Positions 1 to 7,483 of a stretch of 64,000 bases of DNA are shown one piece after another. The DNA lies in NCBI RefSeq assembly GCF_001677475.2, contig NZ_CP015229.1; one strand, given 5' to 3'. The position numbers and the translations under genes were made by a program. Every line of letters begins with the position of its first letter. Position 1 is the stretch's first letter. The stretch is from Escherichia coli (GTDB taxonomy: Bacteria; Pseudomonadota; Gammaproteobacteria; Enterobacterales; Enterobacteriaceae). A model generated the notes under the pieces. That model did no database searches and was not told the DNA's origin. It saw nothing but the letters and a program-made list of their open reading frames with translations.

Positions 1-100
1 TGTTACTCTGTTGCCGTTCTTATCCCGATAAATAGCGCCGGGGATAATTTTGGGATGTGCATAACCGCTGGCAGTCAAGCCAGATAAATACGTTCTCATG
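1..100 (-). CDS. Hypothetical protein, 5' end only (gene continues past window start); last visible gene of a coupled minus-strand operon
   Basis: ATG at 100..98 on minus strand, 5 nt after the stop of the 106..426 ORF, preceded by a GGGGA RBS-like stretch; frame open to position 1 (MRTYLSGLTASGYAHPKIIPGAIYRDKNGNRVT...). Confidence 0.35.
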
Positions 101-105
101 ATTAT

Positions 106-426
106 TTATCCCCGATTTGAATCAGTATTCGCTTTCTTTATGGCATTTAATGCATCTGTGGCATTTTCAATGGTGCACCGTAACGAAATATCAAAATGTC
201 CAAGCATTGCCAGTAACAAACCGATATTACCCATATCAATGCGCATGGCCTTTTCGTCATAGTCCTCATTTTCTGACGCATGCCACATCAGGCTACCAAT
301 TGACGCAACGGCCATTGATATATTGTCAGTCGCCCCATCCGCAGCGGAATAAACCTTTTTAGCAATATCATGCTCACAGTTAAAATGCGGATTAATCAGG
401 TACTGGTAATTTGACATATCAGGCAT
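106..426 (-). CDS. Hypothetical protein (106 aa), island cargo, unknown family
   Basis: ORF in track; its start overlaps the stop of the upstream 67-aa gene in the sequence ATGCCTGA (translational coupling). Confidence 0.5.
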   Translation of the reverse strand: MPDMSNYQYLINPHFNCEHDIAKKVYSAADGATDNISMAVASIGSLMWHASENEDYDEKAMRIDMGNIGLLLAMLGHFDISLRCTIENATDALNAIKKANTDSNRG

Positions 427-622
427 GGCACACCCCCTGACGAATACGGGCGGCGAATACCATCACGCAGCCAGCCGGGGAGTGCTGGCGTGCTTCCTGT
501 TCGCTGGTGGCCACGATGGTAATCACACGCGGTTTTGCGGCGCTCAGGGCGATAAAACGCCAGGCGAATTTATTCAGGTTGTGCGAATCCCGCCCTTGCG
601 GGTGTATGGTATGATTTCTCAT
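419..622 (-). CDS. Hypothetical small protein (67 aa), first gene of the minus-strand operon
   Basis: ATG at 622..620 preceded by GAGG at 5-nt spacing; stop overlaps start of the 106..426 ORF. The 334-aa track ORF 419..1423 is judged an artefactual upstream extension. Confidence 0.45.
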   Translation of the reverse strand: MRNHTIHPQGRDSHNLNKFAWRFIALSAAKPRVITIVATSEQEARQHSPAGCVMVFAARIRQGVCHA

Positions 623-660
623 AGCTACCTCGATACTCTCGTTATCGTTGGTGGTTAGAA

Positions 661-706
661 GCCCTGCGAGTGGTAACGACACTTGCGGGGCTTTGTTTTT
701 TGTTGC
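661..706 (+). terminator. Strand-specific intrinsic terminator-like hairpin (12-bp stem with two G-U wobbles, then T-run)
   Basis: GCCCTGCGAGTG...CACTTGCGGGGC followed by TTTGTTTTTT on the plus strand; wobble pairs become C-A mismatches on the minus strand. Confidence 0.35.
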
Positions 707-713
707 ACTTACT

Positions 714-766
714 GTTAATGTACGTACGTAATATTGATGATAATAGGAGTTACGTACGTACATGTC
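714..766. promoter_or_regulatory. Two copies of the self-complementary decamer TACGTACGTA about 32 bp apart; candidate operators for the adjacent RHH repressor
   Basis: TGTACGTACGTAAT at ~718-731 and GTTACGTACGTACATG at ~750-765; the second overlaps the ATG of the 762..953 gene. Confidence 0.4.
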
Positions 767-953
767 AACATTAAAGCGGGATAAATCACCACGCGGCGAG
801 GGATGGTCGCCGACATTCCAGATACGAATTAGCAAAGAACTACGCCAGCAAGTAAACGAGGCAGCAACCGCCGATGGCCTAACCCTCGGCAATTGGTTTA
901 AAGAATTAGCTCGTGCCGAACTAAAGCGACGCGGCATTGAACCTAAAGGCTGA
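762..953 (+). CDS. Ribbon-helix-helix (Arc/MetJ/CopG-like) DNA-binding protein, 63 aa
   Basis: N-terminal beta-strand pattern TFQIRISKELRQQVNEAA typical of RHH repressors; operator palindromes overlap the start codon. Confidence 0.5.
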   Translation: MSTLKRDKSPRGEGWSPTFQIRISKELRQQVNEAATADGLTLGNWFKELARAELKRRGIEPKG

Positions 954-956
954 TGT

Positions 957-1082
957 ATGACTGAAAAGCAGACCGATAACAAACTTTCTCTACCAGAGAA
1001 TAAACCAGCAGGCTTCTTACCAAGAAAAATCCTTGATGAGATCAAACGCCGCCAGCGGCGCAAGGCCAAAGAGCAGGAGTAA
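957..1082 (+). CDS. Small hypothetical protein (41 aa), basic C-terminus
   Basis: ATG 3 nt after the RHH gene stop (TGATGTATGA), same strand; not in track because shorter than 60 aa. Confidence 0.25.
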   Translation: MTEKQTDNKLSLPENKPAGFLPRKILDEIKRRQRRKAKEQE

Positions 1083-1139
1083 CCATCACCAGCGCCGTGG
1101 TGCGGTGAACTGTGGCGCACAGGGTTACAGGTATCTACG

Positions 1140-1319
1140 ATGACTGACAAATCATTAAAGAAATTATCCTCATCCAAGAAAAAACAACGCAAAAATGCGG
1201 TAAACGAACATGAACCGGAGAGATTCGCACCATGTGCGTTTATCCTTGAGAAGTACCTTAAAGAGTATTCTAGGAAAATACGCTCATTGCAGGCATGGCA
1301 GCGAATCGAGCCAGACTGA
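1140..1319 (+). CDS. Small hypothetical protein (59 aa), lysine-rich
   Basis: Manual translation MTDKSLKKLSSSKKKQRKNAVNEHEPERFAPCAFILEKYLKEYSRKIRSLQAWQRIEPD; same strand as the RHH gene. Confidence 0.2.
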   Translation: MTDKSLKKLSSSKKKQRKNAVNEHEPERFAPCAFILEKYLKEYSRKIRSLQAWQRIEPD

Positions 1320-1429
1320 TAGCATTGCCCACCAGCCAACAACCTGGTATTCTGGATATGCTCAAGTTTAGTGTTATGCCACTGGCGGCCCTCTGCGGTC
1401 GCCTTTGTTTTATGTGCCATCACTCCCCC

Positions 1430-1648
1430 TTACACCGTCTGCGTTCTGCGAGTGGATGCAAGATAAGCATCGAGATCAGTGCGCATATACAGCACTTTGC
1501 GCCCCAGCTTATGGAAAGGGATTTTTACCTTGCCAGTACAGGCCCAGTTCGCCAGCGTTTGATTGTTAACGCCAAGGTAGGCAGCAGCTTCAGCACGTGT
1601 AAGGCGGTCAGTTGATAAATCAGATTTCTTTAAATTCATATCTATCAC
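1430..1648 (-). CDS. alpA: AlpA-family prophage regulatory protein (excisionase-like HTH), 72 aa
   Basis: Size and sequence LTRAEAAAYLGVNNQTLANWACTGKVKIPFHKLGRKVLYMRTDLDAYL match the AlpA/Vis family; sits downstream of int as in CP4-57. Confidence 0.7.
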   Translation of the reverse strand: MIDMNLKKSDLSTDRLTRAEAAAYLGVNNQTLANWACTGKVKIPFHKLGRKVLYMRTDLDAYLASTRRTQTV

Positions 1649-1781
1649 CGTGTACTTCTAAGTAACAACGGTGATAAATATCAATCAATGGGTATTTTGT
1701 TTTTAGCCCAATAGCCAGTTGCTGTGGGGAGGTTACCAGTTATTTAGCCTTAATAGCCAGCTATTAAGATACACTAGCCAG

Positions 1782-2507
1782 CTATTGGGGGTGAACAAGT
1801 TCAAACGAAGAATATTTATCAGGTCTTGGTGGTTGTGCTCCTGATTCTTTAATCCATTTATCCAGAGTGTTTTTACTTACTTTCCCATGATAGTAAACAG
1901 AAAGCTCGTTCAATAAACCTGTTTTACTGGCTTTAGGGTACTTTTCCCATGTTAGTTTAATTACGTGCATAACTTCATTGTAATAATGATTTCTTGGTTT
2001 GCGCGCTTTTTCTTTCTGTGATAAGGATAAAGCATCTTTTATTTTTTTATCTTTTTCATGGTTCGATATAATTTCTTCAAAAAAGTCATTAAGCAATAAC
2101 TCAACACCAACCCTAGTAAGTTTGTCTGCGTGATTACGCATTCCGACATGGTACAATGCAACTGCTGAATTTAAAGTATCGACAACCTGACAAGATAGTT
2201 TACTATCAAATATTAAAAAACCACATGAATCCATTCTTATAGCTAATTCAATAGGATATTGCTCGATTTCTCTTAATTCTAAACCATAACACAAAAGAAA
2301 TTCTCTTGTTGGATACTTTGATTTATAAAAATAATCTCTTATATCATCAATCAAGCGTTTTATAGCCTCTATGGTGGAGTTTTTCGGGGATAAAGATACA
2401 GGAACGTTTAAAACTGAAGAGTCTCGCCCACCAGTAATTAAATCATTCATAACCGAATAAATAATATATTGTTTGACCGATATATTGTTATCACCCATAT
2501 ATGTCAT
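1782..2507 (-). CDS. Hypothetical protein (241 aa), strongly AT-rich cargo gene between int and alpA
   Basis: ORF in track; start overlaps the integrase stop (2491..2507); composition visibly more AT-rich than flanking genes. Confidence 0.55.
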   Translation of the reverse strand: MTYMGDNNISVKQYIIYSVMNDLITGGRDSSVLNVPVSLSPKNSTIEAIKRLIDDIRDYFYKSKYPTREFLLCYGLELREIEQYPIELAIRMDSCGFLIFDSKLSCQVVDTLNSAVALYHVGMRNHADKLTRVGVELLLNDFFEEIISNHEKDKKIKDALSLSQKEKARKPRNHYYNEVMHVIKLTWEKYPKASKTGLLNELSVYYHGKVSKNTLDKWIKESGAQPPRPDKYSSFELVHPQ

Positions 2508-3912
2508 TCTTTTCTTGTACTATAGCAAATAGTAAACGACGTTTTTCATCATCACTCATGCCCTCCAGTGCGGAAAGTAATTGCGCATCGATAGATTTTT
2601 TACTCTCCACCAGCCCGGCATGTTCCAGAATTGCCCGTTCTATCCGTGATGCTGGCTCCAGCAGTTCATCAGCACCGAAATGTAAATACCCCTGCGTTAC
2701 GTCGGCACTTCGCATAGTGCGGTGATTCATCAGGCGCTTGAGGATGTAATTACCCACGCCCACCAGCTCAGCAACCGTTCCGAACGTCCGGCGTGCGTCG
2801 TGCCACTTAAACGGGACAGGGAAGAGCATTTCATCGTTCGCCTCAGGAATGGTAGCCGCGCTTATCCGGTCTATGATGTGCCGTGTCTCCTGAATCACTC
2901 CCTTCACGCCAGGAAACACCAGCACATCATCAGCAGCTTTGTTTTTTAGCCTGCGAAGAAACATTTTCCGCAACGTATCAGTGATCGGCAGTTCAAGCGG
3001 ATCCCCGTTTTTCGTGGTGTCTATCCAGAAAAAGCGACCGCCCATATTCACGCGATCCCACGTAAGGCCAAAAACTTCTGATTTCCTCAGTCCGGTAAAC
3101 AGTGCCATTTCCACGGCATCACATACCGTAACAGCTATATCATCCCTTTCCTGTTCGCCCTGGTCGCGCACAGCAGCTACAGCAGCAAACCAGCGGGGAA
3201 AATCATGCAGGCGGATACGTTCCGTTTTTCTTACCGTTCCGTGCCACTGGCGCTTGGTGCTCAGTACCAGAGTCGGCGGATCCGGTAAAAGAGTATTACC
3301 CGCATCATCACGGTAATGATCATGCGCAAACCGACACACAGCACGTAGCGCACGCGCCCATAAATCGGCCTGTGCCTTGCTTCCTGTACCAACCCCAGCC
3401 CGTAACGTGGTTTTATCAGCACCGAACCATACAGCCCCATCAGTGATGGCCTTATGCCGTTGTTCCACCCGTTCGCGGGAAATACTGGCGAGGGTATGGG
3501 CCATCCAGTCACCGGAATAATTCTGTAATATGCTGCGGTACTGTTTTTCTGTGGAGGGTTTCAGGCGGTGGCCACGATTTTTTACGTAGGCGTCAATCGC
3601 CTCACTCAGCGTTATCATGGCCTTGTTGTTAGTGCGCTTTGCTATGTTCGGATTTATCCCCGTTGTGGCGACTTCGCCAAGGAGTTCCATAGCTTTAGCC
3701 CTGGCATTATCCACGCTCAGATCAGGAAAACGCCCCAGCGTTGCACGAATAAATTTTCCGTTACGCTTACGGGAAATGCAGAAACTTTTCACACCAGACG
3801 AACCTACACGGACACGCAGCCCGTTAACCTCCGTATCACCATATTCGACCTGTCCATGTTCCGGCGTTGGCAGTTCTGCAATTTTTACTTTAGAGAATCT
3901 GAATAATTTCAC
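2491..3912 (-). CDS. int: Tyrosine recombinase / phage integrase (P4-family), 473 aa
   Basis: N-terminal arm-binding pattern (EVNGLRVRV...GK...ATLGRFPDLSVDNARAKAMELL) and C-terminal catalytic motifs (HDARRT...GYLH); adjacent to tRNA-derived att site. Confidence 0.85.
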   Translation of the reverse strand: MKLFRFSKVKIAELPTPEHGQVEYGDTEVNGLRVRVGSSGVKSFCISRKRNGKFIRATLGRFPDLSVDNARAKAMELLGEVATTGINPNIAKRTNNKAMITLSEAIDAYVKNRGHRLKPSTEKQYRSILQNYSGDWMAHTLASISRERVEQRHKAITDGAVWFGADKTTLRAGVGTGSKAQADLWARALRAVCRFAHDHYRDDAGNTLLPDPPTLVLSTKRQWHGTVRKTERIRLHDFPRWFAAVAAVRDQGEQERDDIAVTVCDAVEMALFTGLRKSEVFGLTWDRVNMGGRFFWIDTTKNGDPLELPITDTLRKMFLRRLKNKAADDVLVFPGVKGVIQETRHIIDRISAATIPEANDEMLFPVPFKWHDARRTFGTVAELVGVGNYILKRLMNHRTMRSADVTQGYLHFGADELLEPASRIERAILEHAGLVESKKSIDAQLLSALEGMSDDEKRRLLFAIVQEKNDIYG

Positions 3913-4092
3913 TCATACACCCCACCAAGCGATCTGGTATCCTGGAAAATCGCTTGTTCTGCTCCAGGATACCTATAGGATACCGTAAAGAAGTATTTTG
4001 GGGTATATACAGGTATTTATACAGTAGTTTTAAAAAATGCTAAGGTATTGAAAAGTATCGCTAAGTATCTGTAAGTAAAGGGTTATCAACCA
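3913..4092. promoter_or_regulatory. Integrase upstream region with reiterated short motifs (GGTATCC/GGATACC inverted and direct copies; AAGTATC direct copies); candidate int promoter and arm-type sites
   Basis: Visible repeats CTGGTATCCTGG...CCAGGATACC...GGATACC and TAAGTATCGCTAAGTATCTGTAAG. Confidence 0.3.
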
Positions 4093-4139
4093 ACTCATAA
4101 TCGCTTGGTCGCTGGTTCAAGTCCAGCAGGGGCCACCAG
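4093..4139 (+). tRNA. ileX: Truncated tRNA: 3' 47 nt of a tRNA-Ile2(CAU)/ileX-like gene (anticodon loop through CCA); island att site, not a complete tRNA
   Basis: ACTCATAATCGCTTGGTCGCTGGTTCAAGTCCAGCAGGGGCCACCA matches the 3' portion of E. coli ileX as I recall it; no complementary 5' acceptor strand upstream. Confidence 0.6.
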
Positions 4140-4146
4140 ATATAGC

Positions 4147-4182
4147 AAAGGCTGACGAGAAATCGTCAGCCTTTTTCTTTTT
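4147..4182. terminator. Intrinsic terminator hairpin between tRNA fragment and yqjH 3' end
   Basis: GGCTGACGA-GAAA-TCGTCAGCC followed by TTTTTCTTTTT. Confidence 0.5.
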
Positions 4183-4191
4183 ATATATCAG

Positions 4192-4956
4192 TTACTTTGC
4201 GTGCCAGTAAGCCGCTGCACGTACCCGCTGTGGATCATACTGTTCCGCTTCAAAGCGGCGGCTTAAATTCTTAACGACTTTGCCTTCGCCGGTTATCCAG
4301 ATGAAGTAATCATCGGCAGGGATTTGCATCTGCGCCAGACGCGCATCTACTGCCTGCTCATCATGTGCCAGCCATTCGATATTAAAACCATCAAGGTGCG
4401 CGAGATAATCCTGACAGGCGTTATCCCGCACGCTAACCAGCGCACTAACTTGCGGTTTAACGGCAAGTTTGCTCAACGTTTCCAGGCGGCGGCGCAGTGC
4501 GGGCATTCCGGATTCATCGCAGACATACAGCTGATACGCGTAATCTTCCGGCACCACCAGCGAACCGCGGGGACCTGCCACCGTGAGTTTATCGCCCGGT
4601 TGCGCCTGCATTGCCCAGCTGCTGGCGACGCCACCTTCGTGAATAAAGAAATCAATCGCCAGTACATGGCGTAGTTCGTCATACAGCGGTGTATAGTCAC
4701 GCGACGGTGGGCGTGGTCCTTCCGGCCAGACGATGCCCTCTTCCGTTACTGTTGGCGGCACAAAGTGAGCATCAGATTGAGGAAAGAAGAGTTTGCTGTG
4801 ATCGTCAAAGCCGCGCGATGTAAAACCGTCCAGCGCCTCGCCGCCAAAGACAATGCGCTGAAAACCGGCGCTAATACGCTCAACGCGTAGCACAGTCAGT
4901 TCACGGAAGCGCAGATCATTGCGAACGCGCTGCGGGTAGCGGGGGGAGTTATTCAT
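4192..4956 (-). CDS. yqjH: NADPH-dependent ferric-siderophore reductase (siderophore-interacting protein)
   Basis: ORF in track; sequence and position match K-12 YqjH. Confidence 0.9.
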   Translation of the reverse strand: MNNSPRYPQRVRNDLRFRELTVLRVERISAGFQRIVFGGEALDGFTSRGFDDHSKLFFPQSDAHFVPPTVTEEGIVWPEGPRPPSRDYTPLYDELRHVLAIDFFIHEGGVASSWAMQAQPGDKLTVAGPRGSLVVPEDYAYQLYVCDESGMPALRRRLETLSKLAVKPQVSALVSVRDNACQDYLAHLDGFNIEWLAHDEQAVDARLAQMQIPADDYFIWITGEGKVVKNLSRRFEAEQYDPQRVRAAAYWHAK

Positions 4957-4977
4957 TGTTATCGCCTTCGTGATAGT

Positions 4978-5214
4978 AATAAGATATATCTAAATAAATT
5001 TCGTAAATGATAATGATTGTTAATCATGATAAATGCAAGCGATTTGTAGAACTGATACATCTGAGGTATGAGAAGACATTCAACGTCGTAGAAAGGCTGG
5101 CGGATGCGGCGTGAACGTATTATCCGGCCTGGATGTGAGGTGCATTCACGTTTAAAAATCATTTTTATACTTGCAAGAGCGCTCATGTCAGATATAAATT
5201 AGATATATCTAATT
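4978..5214. promoter_or_regulatory. yqjH-yqjI divergent control region with two AGATATATCT palindromes (one within a perfect 18-bp palindrome AATTAGATATATCTAATT)
   Basis: AGATATATCT at 4982..4991 (yqjH side) and 5201..5210 (yqjI side, palindrome spanning 5197..5214). Confidence 0.5.
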
Positions 5215-5232
5215 AAGCAAAAGGAGGCTGAT

Positions 5233-5856
5233 ATGAGCCATCATCACGAAGGGTGTTGTAAACATGAAGGCCAGCCACGCCATGAAGGCTGCTGCAAAGG
5301 TGAGAAGTCAGAACATGAGCACTGCGGACACGGTCACCAGCATGAACACGGTCAATGCTGCGGTGGTCGCCACGGTCGCGGCGGCGGTCGTCGGCAGCGT
5401 TTCTTTGGTCACGGTGAATTGCGTCTGGTGATTCTGGATATTCTCTCGCGCGATGACAGCCACGGTTACGAGTTGATTAAAGCGATTGAAAATCTGACCC
5501 AGGGGAATTACACCCCAAGCCCGGGCGTCATCTACCCGACGCTGGATTTTCTCCAGGAGCAGTCGCTGATTACCATCCGCGAAGAGGAAGGTGGTAAGAA
5601 GCAGATTGCGCTGACCGAACAAGGCGCGCAGTGGCTGGAAGAAAACCGCGAACAGGTGGAGATGATCGAAGAACGCATCAAAGCGCGTTGCGTTGGTGCA
5701 GCGCTGCGCCAGAACCCGCAAATGAAGCGGGCGCTGGATAATTTTAAAGCGGTGCTGGATTTACGCGTCAACCAGAGCGATATCACTGATGCACAAATAA
5801 AAAAGATCATTGCGGTGATCGACCGCGCCGCTTTTGATATTACGCAACTGGATTAA
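5233..5856 (+). CDS. yqjI: PadR-family metal-responsive repressor with His/Cys-rich N-terminus
   Basis: ORF in track; N-terminal MSHHHEGCCKHEG...HEHGQCC tract plus PadR-like core. Confidence 0.9.
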   Translation: MSHHHEGCCKHEGQPRHEGCCKGEKSEHEHCGHGHQHEHGQCCGGRHGRGGGRRQRFFGHGELRLVILDILSRDDSHGYELIKAIENLTQGNYTPSPGVIYPTLDFLQEQSLITIREEEGGKKQIALTEQGAQWLEENREQVEMIEERIKARCVGAALRQNPQMKRALDNFKAVLDLRVNQSDITDAQIKKIIAVIDRAAFDITQLD

Positions 5857-5861
5857 TCACC

Positions 5862-5962
5862 GATTGCCGGATGCGGCGTACCCTACACACCCCGTAGGCC
5901 TGATAAGATGCGCCAGCATCGCATCAGGCATTGTGCTCCAACCGCCGGATGCGGCATACCGA
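5862..5962. repeat. REP/BIME palindromic units
   Basis: GCCGGATGCGGCGTA...GCATCAGGC and CCGGATGCGGCATACC motifs. Confidence 0.5.
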
Positions 5963-7483
5963 TTAATGCAGCACCGTCACCGCGTCTTCCAGTCGGCTGG
6001 CGCGGTGTTTCACCATCGCCGACACCTGCGCACTCTCTTCCACCAGCTCGGCATTTTTCTGGGTGATCAGGTTAAGCTCATCCACTGCACGGGTCAGGCT
6101 GGAAAGCCCATCGGCCTGTTCCAGCGTTGAGTGGCTAATCTGGGCGATCAACTGGGTGACGTTTTTCACCTGTGCCACAATATCTTCCATCGTCCGTCCG
6201 GCGGCGTGTACCTGCTGCGAACCGGATTGCACCTTATCAGCACTGGCATCAATCAGCTTGCGAATATCGTTGGCAGCATTGGCGCTGCGGCTGGCTAAAT
6301 GACGCACTTCCCCTGCCACCACTGCAAAACCTTTGCCTTGTTCGCCGGCTCGTGCCGCTTCCACCGCCGCATTCAGGGCCAGAATATTGGTCTGAAACGC
6401 AATATCGTTAATCAGCGAAGTAATGGTGCCAATGCGCTGGGTACTGTCGGCGATATCGTCCATTGTCTTGATCACCGTGCTCATCGCCTCCCCGCCCTGC
6501 ACTGCCGCATTACTGGCAGTGATAGAAAGTTTATCGGCAGCCGACGCCGTGGCAGAGTTCTGTTTCACCGACGCCGCCATTTGGTTCATGGTCGCCACCG
6601 TTTGCTGAACGTTATCAACTGTCTGCTGGGTATGTTCGTTCAGTTCATCGGTGCCTTTCGCCAGCGTCTCACTGCCGTTTCTGACACTGGACACCTGGCT
6701 TGAGACATCGTTAATTAGCCAACGGCACATCAGGCCAAGCTGCCCTACCGCGCGTAATGTCAGCCCCAGCTCATCGCTGCGATTCAGATGCTCAACACTA
6801 TTACGCTCTCCGGTCGCCACCTTCAGTGACTGACGGGCGACATTTTCTATCGGGCGGACAATCTGCCATTCAAAACAGGCGCTTGCCAACAATACCACTA
6901 ACGCACAGAGGATATACGTCACCACCGGGGCAGCAACAAACCAAAGCATGACCGCCAGCAAGATAAACATCAGGGTCATCACGCCACGCGCCCGCCAGCG
7001 AAGCGGTAATGAAGGCAGTTTACCCAGCCAGCCTTTACGCACCACCAGGCCTTTATGAATACGCTTACTGGTACGTCCGGCGTTCAACGCTTTGTACAGC
7101 GGCTCCACCGCCGCGATCTCTTCATCCGTCGCCCGGGTACGAATCGACATATAGCCACTGATTTTTCCCTCACGCACCATCGGTACCGCATTGGCCCGCA
7201 CCCAATAATGGTCGCCATTTTTGCGGCGATTTTTCACGATGCCGCTCCAGGGCTCCCCTTTTTTCAGGGTGAACCACATATCCGCAAACGCCGCTTTTGG
7301 CATATCCGGGTGACGCACCATGTTGTGCGGCTGCCCTTGTAACTCTTGCAAGGTATAGCCGCTCACCTGTACAAAAGTGTCATTAGCATGAGTGAGATAG
7401 CTTTTCAGATCGGTAGTGGACATCAGAGTGGTATCGTCCGCCAGCGGGGTATTTTGCTGGGTGACATACGAATGAGAAGACAT
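5963..7483 (-). CDS. aer: Aerotaxis receptor Aer (PAS-FAD sensor, HAMP, methyl-accepting signalling domain)
   Basis: ORF in track; PAS N-terminus and MCP signalling domain recognisable. Confidence 0.9.
   Translation of the reverse strand: MSSHSYVTQQNTPLADDTTLMSTTDLKSYLTHANDTFVQVSGYTLQELQGQPHNMVRHPDMPKAAFADMWFTLKKGEPWSGIVKNRRKNGDHYWVRANAVPMVREGKISGYMSIRTRATDEEIAAVEPLYKALNAGRTSKRIHKGLVVRKGWLGKLPSLPLRWRARGVMTLMFILLAVMLWFVAAPVVTYILCALVVLLASACFEWQIVRPIENVARQSLKVATGERNSVEHLNRSDELGLTLRAVGQLGLMCRWLINDVSSQVSSVRNGSETLAKGTDELNEHTQQTVDNVQQTVATMNQMAASVKQNSATASAADKLSITASNAAVQGGEAMSTVIKTMDDIADSTQRIGTITSLINDIAFQTNILALNAAVEAARAGEQGKGFAVVAGEVRHLASRSANAANDIRKLIDASADKVQSGSQQVHAAGRTMEDIVAQVKNVTQLIAQISHSTLEQADGLSSLTRAVDELNLITQKNAELVEESAQVSAMVKHRASRLEDAVTVLH

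Follow-up and report, generated by a model that had tools for sequence, protein, structure and literature searches.

Phage-inducible chromosomal islands, abbreviated PICIs, are defined functionally by helper-dependent induction, replication and high-frequency packaging (PMC6092414), and SatelliteFinder recognizes them by a core made up of an integrase, a regulator, a primase-replicase, a capsid-morphogenesis gene and the small terminase subunit gene terS (PMC10085698). EcCICFT073, the prototype of the Gram-negative PICIs, has been described with capsid and decoration genes (PMC6092414). PICIs lodged in tRNA-Ile2 genes have also been noted (PMC10111431), where they are credited with distinctive integrases, an apparent lack of alpA and occurrence in tandem; in one genotype the late gene encodes a CLP_protease-capsid. 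The stretch of Escherichia coli DNA considered here is 64,000 nucleotides of contig NZ_CP015229.1 (assembly GCF_001677475.2), called the window below, and its left end carries an inserted element. With a probability of about 85%, positions 1-4092 are the integration and regulation end of an EcCICFT073-type PICI of ~11 kb, from a lineage whose integrase targets tRNA-Ile2 (ileX, ileY). Because tRNA-Ile2 PICIs already appear in PMC10111431, the element is of a known kind; it is an ordinary one, one more copy of a known satellite type.

The place of insertion is defined to the nucleotide. Positions 4093-4138 (46 nt, ACTCATAATCGCTTGGTCGCTGGTTCAAGTCCAGCAGGGGCCACCA) match K-12 ileX positions 31-76 with 100% identity, a stretch that runs from the anticodon loop to the CCA end; to the right of 4138, a further 60 or more nucleotides show no difference from the K-12 ileX terminator and the end of nfeF (yqjH). 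An uninterrupted native ileX stands between mug and nfeF in the near-isogenic contig of the draft assembly GCA_019140065.1 (L032), which differs from the window backbone by 1 mismatch in 10,864 nt (99.99%) and whose homology to the window starts exactly at 4093. The DNA to the left of 4093 is therefore inserted, and a boundary of this kind is exact and not attributable to chance. A first-pass annotation, made from the sequence letters, had placed an integrative element at an ileX attachment (att) site, with an integrase beside a truncated tRNA copy, and had pointed to mug-ileX-yqjH of K-12 for comparison. The empty site and the identity to K-12 of both the fragment and the terminator downstream of it agree with that proposal; the fragment had been given as 47 nt, 4093-4139, one base in excess, as the final CCA of the gene stops at 4138.

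The integrase gene beside the fragment has a GC content of ~52% and reads away from the tRNA, into the element, as had been proposed. Its product matches the Pfam domains Arm-DNA-bind_3 (1e-12) and Phage_integrase (2.5e-12) as well as phrog_1 (9e-40), so that the P4-family assignment of the first-pass annotation also holds. The catalytic positions, located by motif reading and not by structural alignment, are R276 (TGLRKSE), K301, H371-x-x-R374 (HDARRT), H397 and Y409. Since both domains and all of the R-K-H-R-H-Y motifs are present, the protein is full length and not a fragment. Sequence searches of the PDB with the integrase gave no usable alignment. Of 5426 complete E. coli genomes, 86 carry the gene at more than 90% nucleotide identity.

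More than 20 related loci were examined, and all examined loci carrying the 19-nt core ACTCATAATCGCTTGGTCG were scored. The integrase always adjoins a 3' tRNA fragment, and at the far end, 10.7-11.3 kb away, there is either an intact tRNA-Ile2 gene (ileX or ileY) or, where islands are stacked, a second att fragment. Most loci are simple insertions of 10.7-11.3 kb at ileX between mug and nfeF, as in GF4, TUM1886 and MS20653, and some copies are found at ileY. The window itself holds the integrase and regulation end of its copy, and the replication zone, the late zone and the intact tRNA are read from these relatives. The expectation that an intact tRNA and most of the island lie further left thus stands in the related loci and, for the window's own copy, through them; within the window, ARAGORN calls no complete tRNA at any position, and a second att copy is present in the relatives.

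The relatives whose right ends are 99.9-100% identical to that of the window continue leftward with the DUF4222 gene and the primase gene, and encode a primase-helicase, an 80-aa protein, a single-stranded-DNA-binding protein (SSB), a capsid protein, a decoration protein, a 127-aa helix-turn-helix (HTH) protein of the Phage_AlpA family and a Nu1-type small terminase subunit (TerS). The primase matches phrog_1139 (7e-180 in A36) and has D5_N/DUF5906 or DUF927 in all copies. The late proteins of the relatives match the PHROGs major head (phrog_29, 9e-89), head decoration (1e-26) and TerS (1e-51) families, and Pfam gives Phage_cap_E (a lambda-E-type capsid), HDPD (a lambda-D-type decoration protein) and Phage_Nu1. 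Other variants have a ClpP-protease/capsid fusion with DUF1441, or are without terS; TerS is encoded in A36 and TUM1886, and all five core components of a PICI are present in these two copies. Measured against that core, the window supplies an integrase at one end, and the primase, the capsid-morphogenesis gene and TerS are found in the relatives only.

The regulator is the component that fits least neatly. The place of alpA is taken by a 69-aa protein that matches Pfam HTH_17 (1.5e-11), TIGR01764 (38.8 bits, above the cutoff) and phrog_66, and has no Pfam Phage_AlpA match. The first-pass annotation had named this gene alpA: the position and the small HTH protein are right, and the family is that of HTH_17/excisionase proteins instead. 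A regulator that is an HTH_17 protein and not Pfam AlpA would explain the scoring of tRNA-Ile2 PICIs as alpA-less in PMC10111431. A true Phage_AlpA (PF05930) protein of 127 aa does occur in some relatives, in the late zone, where it is flanked by the decoration gene and terS, and not on the integrase side (A36 L001 14635-15018; equivalents in L022 and L033-L037). Its candidate roles are those of a late regulator or of a counterpart of the packaging-redirection protein of EcCICFT073.

Several points weigh against the assignment to a PICI. The zones for replication and late functions, like the intact tRNA, are taken from relatives whose late zone varies, the regulator belongs to HTH_17 and not to AlpA, and helper-dependent induction of the tRNA-Ile2 lineage would be carried over from other E. 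coli PICIs. Signs of decay are also present among the copies, since the integrase gene is frameshifted in GF4 (L020 16491-17913) and the SSB gene in A36 (L001 16639-17062).

The first-pass annotation had likened the gene order to that of CP4-57-type elements and had called such satellite/CP4-like elements hotspots for defence and toxin-antitoxin cargo. A rival explanation is a cryptic prophage or genomic island of the CP4-57 type, in which an integrase, a yfjH-like cargo gene and alpA would be accompanied by defence or toxin-antitoxin genes and which would not be a satellite. As general background, the gene order of CP4-57 is intA-yfjH-alpA, which the order integrase, open reading frame (ORF), small HTH gene in the window would resemble. 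Moreover, the satellite in A36 is stacked at the same tRNA beside a composite island of ~75 kb with CbtA/YeeU, a cyclic-oligonucleotide-based antiphage signalling system (CBASS), type I restriction-modification (R-M) and remnants of integrative and conjugative elements (ICEs). That island is a separate element, however, with an integrase only 21% identical and an att copy of its own, whereas the near-identical copies of the element are all compact units of 10.7-11.3 kb with primase, SSB, capsid, decoration and terS genes. The proteins of the window part match no defence model of PADLOC-DB v2, apart from a marginal HTH match of the 69-aa protein to mad1 (E 0.003), and no known defence or toxin-antitoxin gene is found there. 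By the gene content and order of the relatives, the EcCICFT073-type satellite replaces the CP4-57-type island, which is left as a highly improbable reading.

A decayed lambdoid prophage, or a capsid-forming PICI (cfPICI), would account for lambda-type head genes in an inserted element, and one divergent variant does have a tail-assembly gene and a tail-gene fragment. However, the annotation of the A36, GF4, TUM1886 and MS20653 copies shows no portal, large terminase (terL), head-tail adaptor or connector, tail, holin, endolysin or lysis genes, and many unrelated strains have kept the 11-kb architecture. The inward-pointing integrase with an adjoining HTH gene is as in PICIs by the criteria of PMC10085698 and PMC10111431, and this explanation is hardly probable. 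Least probable of all is a P4-like satellite, which shares the P4-type integrase architecture, an Icd-like gene, a large primase and integration into a tRNA gene, but would be expected to show Psu, Delta, Sid, epsilon or alpha primase genes, none of which is found in the annotation or the PHROG results of any copy, where lambda-type capsid and decoration genes and Nu1 TerS stand instead; nor does Rfam find a C4/isrK-type immunity RNA in 1-6000 at E<=1.

If the element is a PICI of the EcCICFT073 type, its cycle may be sketched from known E. coli PICIs. A lambdoid helper phage would switch on the HTH regulator, the integrase together with the excisionase-type HTH_17 protein would excise the element, and the primase would replicate it. 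The capsid, decoration and TerS genes would then redirect packaging by the helper, and the satellite DNA would leave the cell in particles made by the helper.

The related loci also show what integration does to the tRNA gene. The T arm reads GTTGGTTCAAACCCAAC in the intact tRNA, as opposed to the native GCTGGTTCAAGTCCAGC in the fragment on the integrase side (14 loci), with four differences that include a compensatory change of the C50-G64 pair to T-A in the T stem, and the intact gene is trailed by an element-specific terminator and not by the native one. Because both T arm and terminator are of the element type, the intact tRNA is a chimera of a host 5' part and a 3' part donated by the element. 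The element brings its own tRNA 3' part and terminator, and therefore an intact, chimeric tRNA is re-formed at the far end, which ARAGORN still calls as a tRNA with a CAU anticodon; the native 3' part remains as the 46-nt stub adjoining the integrase. Other variants of the element carry a native-type tRNA copy. The 19-nt block ACTCATAATCGCTTGGTCG (4093-4111, tRNA positions 31-49) is identical in all att copies, and the T-arm sequences differ between the copies on its two sides in the 14 loci; on this comparison, the integrative crossover must lie inside the block. Next to the integrase-proximal att copy, a 45-nt block (3963-4007) recurs at the element's far end (repeat D3, 78% identity). Across 44 kb of the A36 locus, the motif AGGATACC that it contains in tandem has five occurrences, each at one or the other end of the satellite, and 0 of 100 shuffles reach five; these motifs are probably the arm-type sites of the integrase.

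Islands can be stacked at this one tRNA gene. In A36 (NZ_CP028739.1 4312687-4401509; L005 32588 to L001 24138), the satellite and the ~75-kb composite island form an 88.7-kb stack at ileX, so placed that the intact ileX lies 88.7 kb away. The second att copy, of 47 nt with the four T-arm differences, separates the two; it was found by blastn-short and had been missed by a 30-mer search allowing up to 3 mismatches. In order, the stack consists of a CP4-like segment (CbtA/YeeU, Ag43), type II CBASS (CapV, DncV, Cap2, Cap3), ICE remnants, type I R-M with an AAA ATPase and an HNH nuclease, many insertion sequences, a two-partner-secretion haemagglutinin, the second integrase, the 47-nt att copy and the PICI. 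Stacking is reversed in another locus (L028, CP043262.1 951677-972393), where the T arm of the fragment on the integrase side of the PICI is of the element type, and a DUF4942 island and a lymphostatin-like toxin gene come after that fragment. Because the order is reversed relative to A36, both types of element use the same att site and can enter in either order. The element thus gives a clean picture of how an interrupted tRNA is rebuilt and of how islands are stacked at one tRNA.

The genome of the window is not that of A36. The island parts differ at 1 position in 4140 nt, and the window was considered as A36 DNA on the strength of a '100.0%' match; in base-by-base comparison, the backbones are only ~98% identical, which rules this out. 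For the same reason, the 88.7-kb composite arrangement describes A36 and not necessarily the genome of the window, and the CBASS, type I R-M and toxin-antitoxin genes belong to the stacked neighbour island in A36, not to this element or necessarily to its genome. From 4141 onwards, the window backbone is at most 99% identical to any of the 5426 complete E. coli genomes and 99.99% identical to the draft GCA_019140065.1, so that the lineage is poorly represented among complete genomes.

The one feature here that is not already described is the family of the ORF between the integrase and the HTH_17 gene, and it does not by itself make the element remarkable. The 238-aa product is all-alpha: its N-terminal domain (~1-117) is variable, a long helix (121-166) comes next, and a C-terminal domain of three helices and the winged-helix/HTH-like kind (173-219) is conserved, as is the tail. 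No match was found in Pfam, PHROGs, PADLOC, NCBIfam or, by sequence profile search, the PDB, and the family has no match in BFVD or, by tblastn, in 50,697 phage genomes. The first-pass annotation had called this gene AT-rich cargo, and the composition is as stated, 31% GC against the 52% of the integrase gene. The window allele is found in only 23 genomes, and all other copies of the integrase have an ORF of 206-245 aa at the same place, likewise overlapping the integrase stop codon. A 228-aa allele is 27% identical to the window ORF over the C-terminal 135 residues (E 9e-13). By an exhaustive profile search, the family comprises 157 clusters at 50% identity. Of the members listed, nearly all have 190-280 aa, some being shorter and probably partial, and they share a conserved C-terminal part with N-termini that cannot be aligned. 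Relatives in the AlphaFold database are all 'uncharacterized' and almost all from Enterobacterales, and each of three distant members lies between an Arm-DNA-bind_3 integrase of ~470 aa and an HTH_17 gene. Judged by these sequence comparisons, the ORF is a conserved, integrase-linked family member and not variable accessory cargo.

Exchange between copies follows a modular pattern. Nucleotide comparison of the window with the L006 type shows that the whole block 1562-2518 is swapped (the ORF, the intergenic region downstream of it and the HTH gene up to codon 26), while relative to KC-Dl-1 (L011) replacement is confined to two-thirds of the ORF, on the N-terminal side, and 1049-2013 is 99.5% identical. 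The intergenic repeats vary with the C-terminal subtype of the ORF, and the HTH_17 proteins of the window and L006 types keep an identical recognition region. The intergenic site of the L006 type is AACCAGAT-N12-ATCTGGTT, and a distant member (P0060), with the L006 C-terminal subtype and another N-terminus, has the same arms and spacing around a diverged spacer. Directly before the HTH_17 start codon of the window is an inverted repeat, TCACCGT-N16-ACGGTGA (1640-1690), and the L006-type cassette has another repeat, CGTATAC...GTATACG, at the same place; the window repeat is possibly a leader hairpin controlling translation or termination.

The ORF is a lineage-specific component whose most probable role is that of a DNA-binding regulator or sensor. 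This pattern would tentatively fit a DNA-binding regulator with an exchangeable sensor domain; physical linkage of the 3' end of the ORF to the intergenic region alone would also yield much of the co-variation between repeats and subtypes. Carried further, the family may be a specificity module of the lineage, a dimeric DNA-binding protein whose C-terminal winged helix would sit on the repeats before the HTH_17 gene and whose exchanged N-terminal domain would sense a helper-phage protein. It would then be a Gram-negative counterpart of Stl from the Staphylococcus aureus pathogenicity islands (SaPIs) or, alternatively, a phage-sensing immunity protein, a proposal to which we give rather low odds. 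Immune systems of PICIs are reported to lie beside pri or at an element's 5' or 3' end (PMC11364771), and given that report the position of the ORF is suggestive of a possible immune role. The ORF sits exactly where satellites keep helper-sensing or immunity functions, and Gram-negative PICIs are currently described as being without such a specificity component. In 2018, the way in which E. coli PICIs are switched on by helper phages was described as unresolved (PMC6092414), and no later answer was found in the literature; if the ORF controls induction, it would offer a testable handle on this question.

Coordinates of the features in and beside the element are collected below. To the left of the HTH_17 gene, the three rightward genes in 762-1319 form a divergent unit of small genes, followed by a terminator-like hairpin at 1384-1403. 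Two TACGTACGTA palindromes (721-730 and 751-760) overlap the leftward promoter. Between that promoter and the Icd-like gene, a 15-bp G+C-rich hairpin with a T-run (658-694, plus strand) lies antisense to the operon leader; it could be the end of an antisense RNA or a leader structure. The Q47H variant of the Icd-like protein separates the window from A36, GF4 and TUM1886. Rfam finds no known RNA in 1-4200. In the host DNA, between nfeR and aer, an element resembling repetitive extragenic palindromic (REP) sequences (5897-5973) matches Rfam naRNA4 with 44.3 bits, below the gathering score of 59.5.

Features of the element and of the adjoining host DNA, in window coordinates
Feature	Position	Strand	Basis or remark
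DUF4222 gene, first 33 codons, running off the window edge	1..99	-	RefSeq annotation of 99.9-100% identical copies
Conserved satellite protein, 106 aa	106..426	-	phrog_15327 2e-71
Icd-like protein, 67 aa	419..622	-	NF033153 64 bits, phrog_6196
Strong sigma-70-like promoter, TTGACA-17-TATTAT, leading leftward into the Icd-like and replication genes (putative function)	721..768 (promoter 768 to 740)	-	11/12 consensus matches
YlcI/YnfO- or Arc-like protein, 63 aa	762-953	+	ORF listing, profile matches
41-aa ORF	957-1082	+	ORF listing
59-aa ORF, without annotation in RefSeq records of identical sequence	1140-1319	+	phrog_21027 5e-30
HTH_17/excisionase-family protein, 69 aa, at the PICI alpA position	1430..1639	-	Pfam, NCBIfam, PHROGs
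Intergenic region upstream of the HTH_17 gene, candidate operator/promoter	1640..1781	-	CTGGCTA repeats
Palindrome CTTAATAGCTGGCTATTAAG among the CTGGCTA repeats	1749-1768		window type
Integrase-linked ORF, 238 aa, 31% GC	1782..2498	-	start overlaps the integrase stop by 8 nt
Tyrosine integrase, 473 aa, P4-like architecture	2491..3912	-	Pfam, PHROGs, motifs
Putative arm-type integrase sites in the integrase-proximal att arm	3936..4007	.	motif repeats
AGGATACC copies	3936-3943, 3966-3973, 3977-3984	-, +, +	sequence motif
attR, native ileX (tRNA-Ile2) 3' part in displaced position, tRNA positions 31-76	4093..4138	+	K-12 identity, start of empty-site homology
Terminator of native ileX (hairpin with T-run), in host DNA beyond the element	4147..4182	+	terminator-like site, K-12 identity
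Host nfeF/yqjH, with nfeR/yqjI and aer further right	4192-4956	-	ORF listing

Four described systems serve for comparison. The likeness of the 238-aa ORF to SaPI Stl is a functional analogy drawn from general knowledge: both are satellite genes adjacent to the integrase gene, and in both a conserved DNA-binding part is joined to a highly divergent part that is swapped between otherwise similar elements. On the other hand, no sequence or fold similarity between the two was found, the ORF is co-directional with the integrase and HTH genes and not divergent, and its HTH is C-terminal. Repression is a trait of Stl and would apply to the ORF by analogy, while Gram-negative PICIs are described as controlled by an activator, AlpA. 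The integrases of P4 and CP4-57 share with the present one an N-terminal Arm-DNA-bind_3 domain, a tyrosine recombinase domain and a target in the 3' part of tRNA genes; here, in contrast, the integrase gene adjoins the displaced fragment and points inward, and the tRNA copy borne by the element is at the opposite end.

The tRNA-Ile2 PICIs of the Williams group (PMC10111431) are matched by the GF4 and MS20653 copies by description. In its available part, that report mentions tRNA-Ile2 PICIs only as hosts of helper-embedded PICIs and gives no account of the arm repeats, of a chimeric T arm or of the family of the integrase-linked ORF. From EcCICFT073, whose gene order was read from the CFT073 sequence, the lineage differs in its longer integrase (473 aa, as against 409 aa), in a tRNA site (EcCICFT073 lies by roxA and phoQ), in an HTH_17 regulator, in the 238-aa ORF family that it holds between integrase and regulator, where EcCICFT073 has no gene, and in the Nu1-type terS of some copies, which EcCICFT073 does not have. 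In both, however, the genes belong to homologous families and follow the same order over ~11 kb: integrase, small HTH gene, divergent YlcI/YnfO-like gene, Icd-like gene, DUF4222, primase, SSB, lambda-E-like capsid and lambda-D-like decoration gene.

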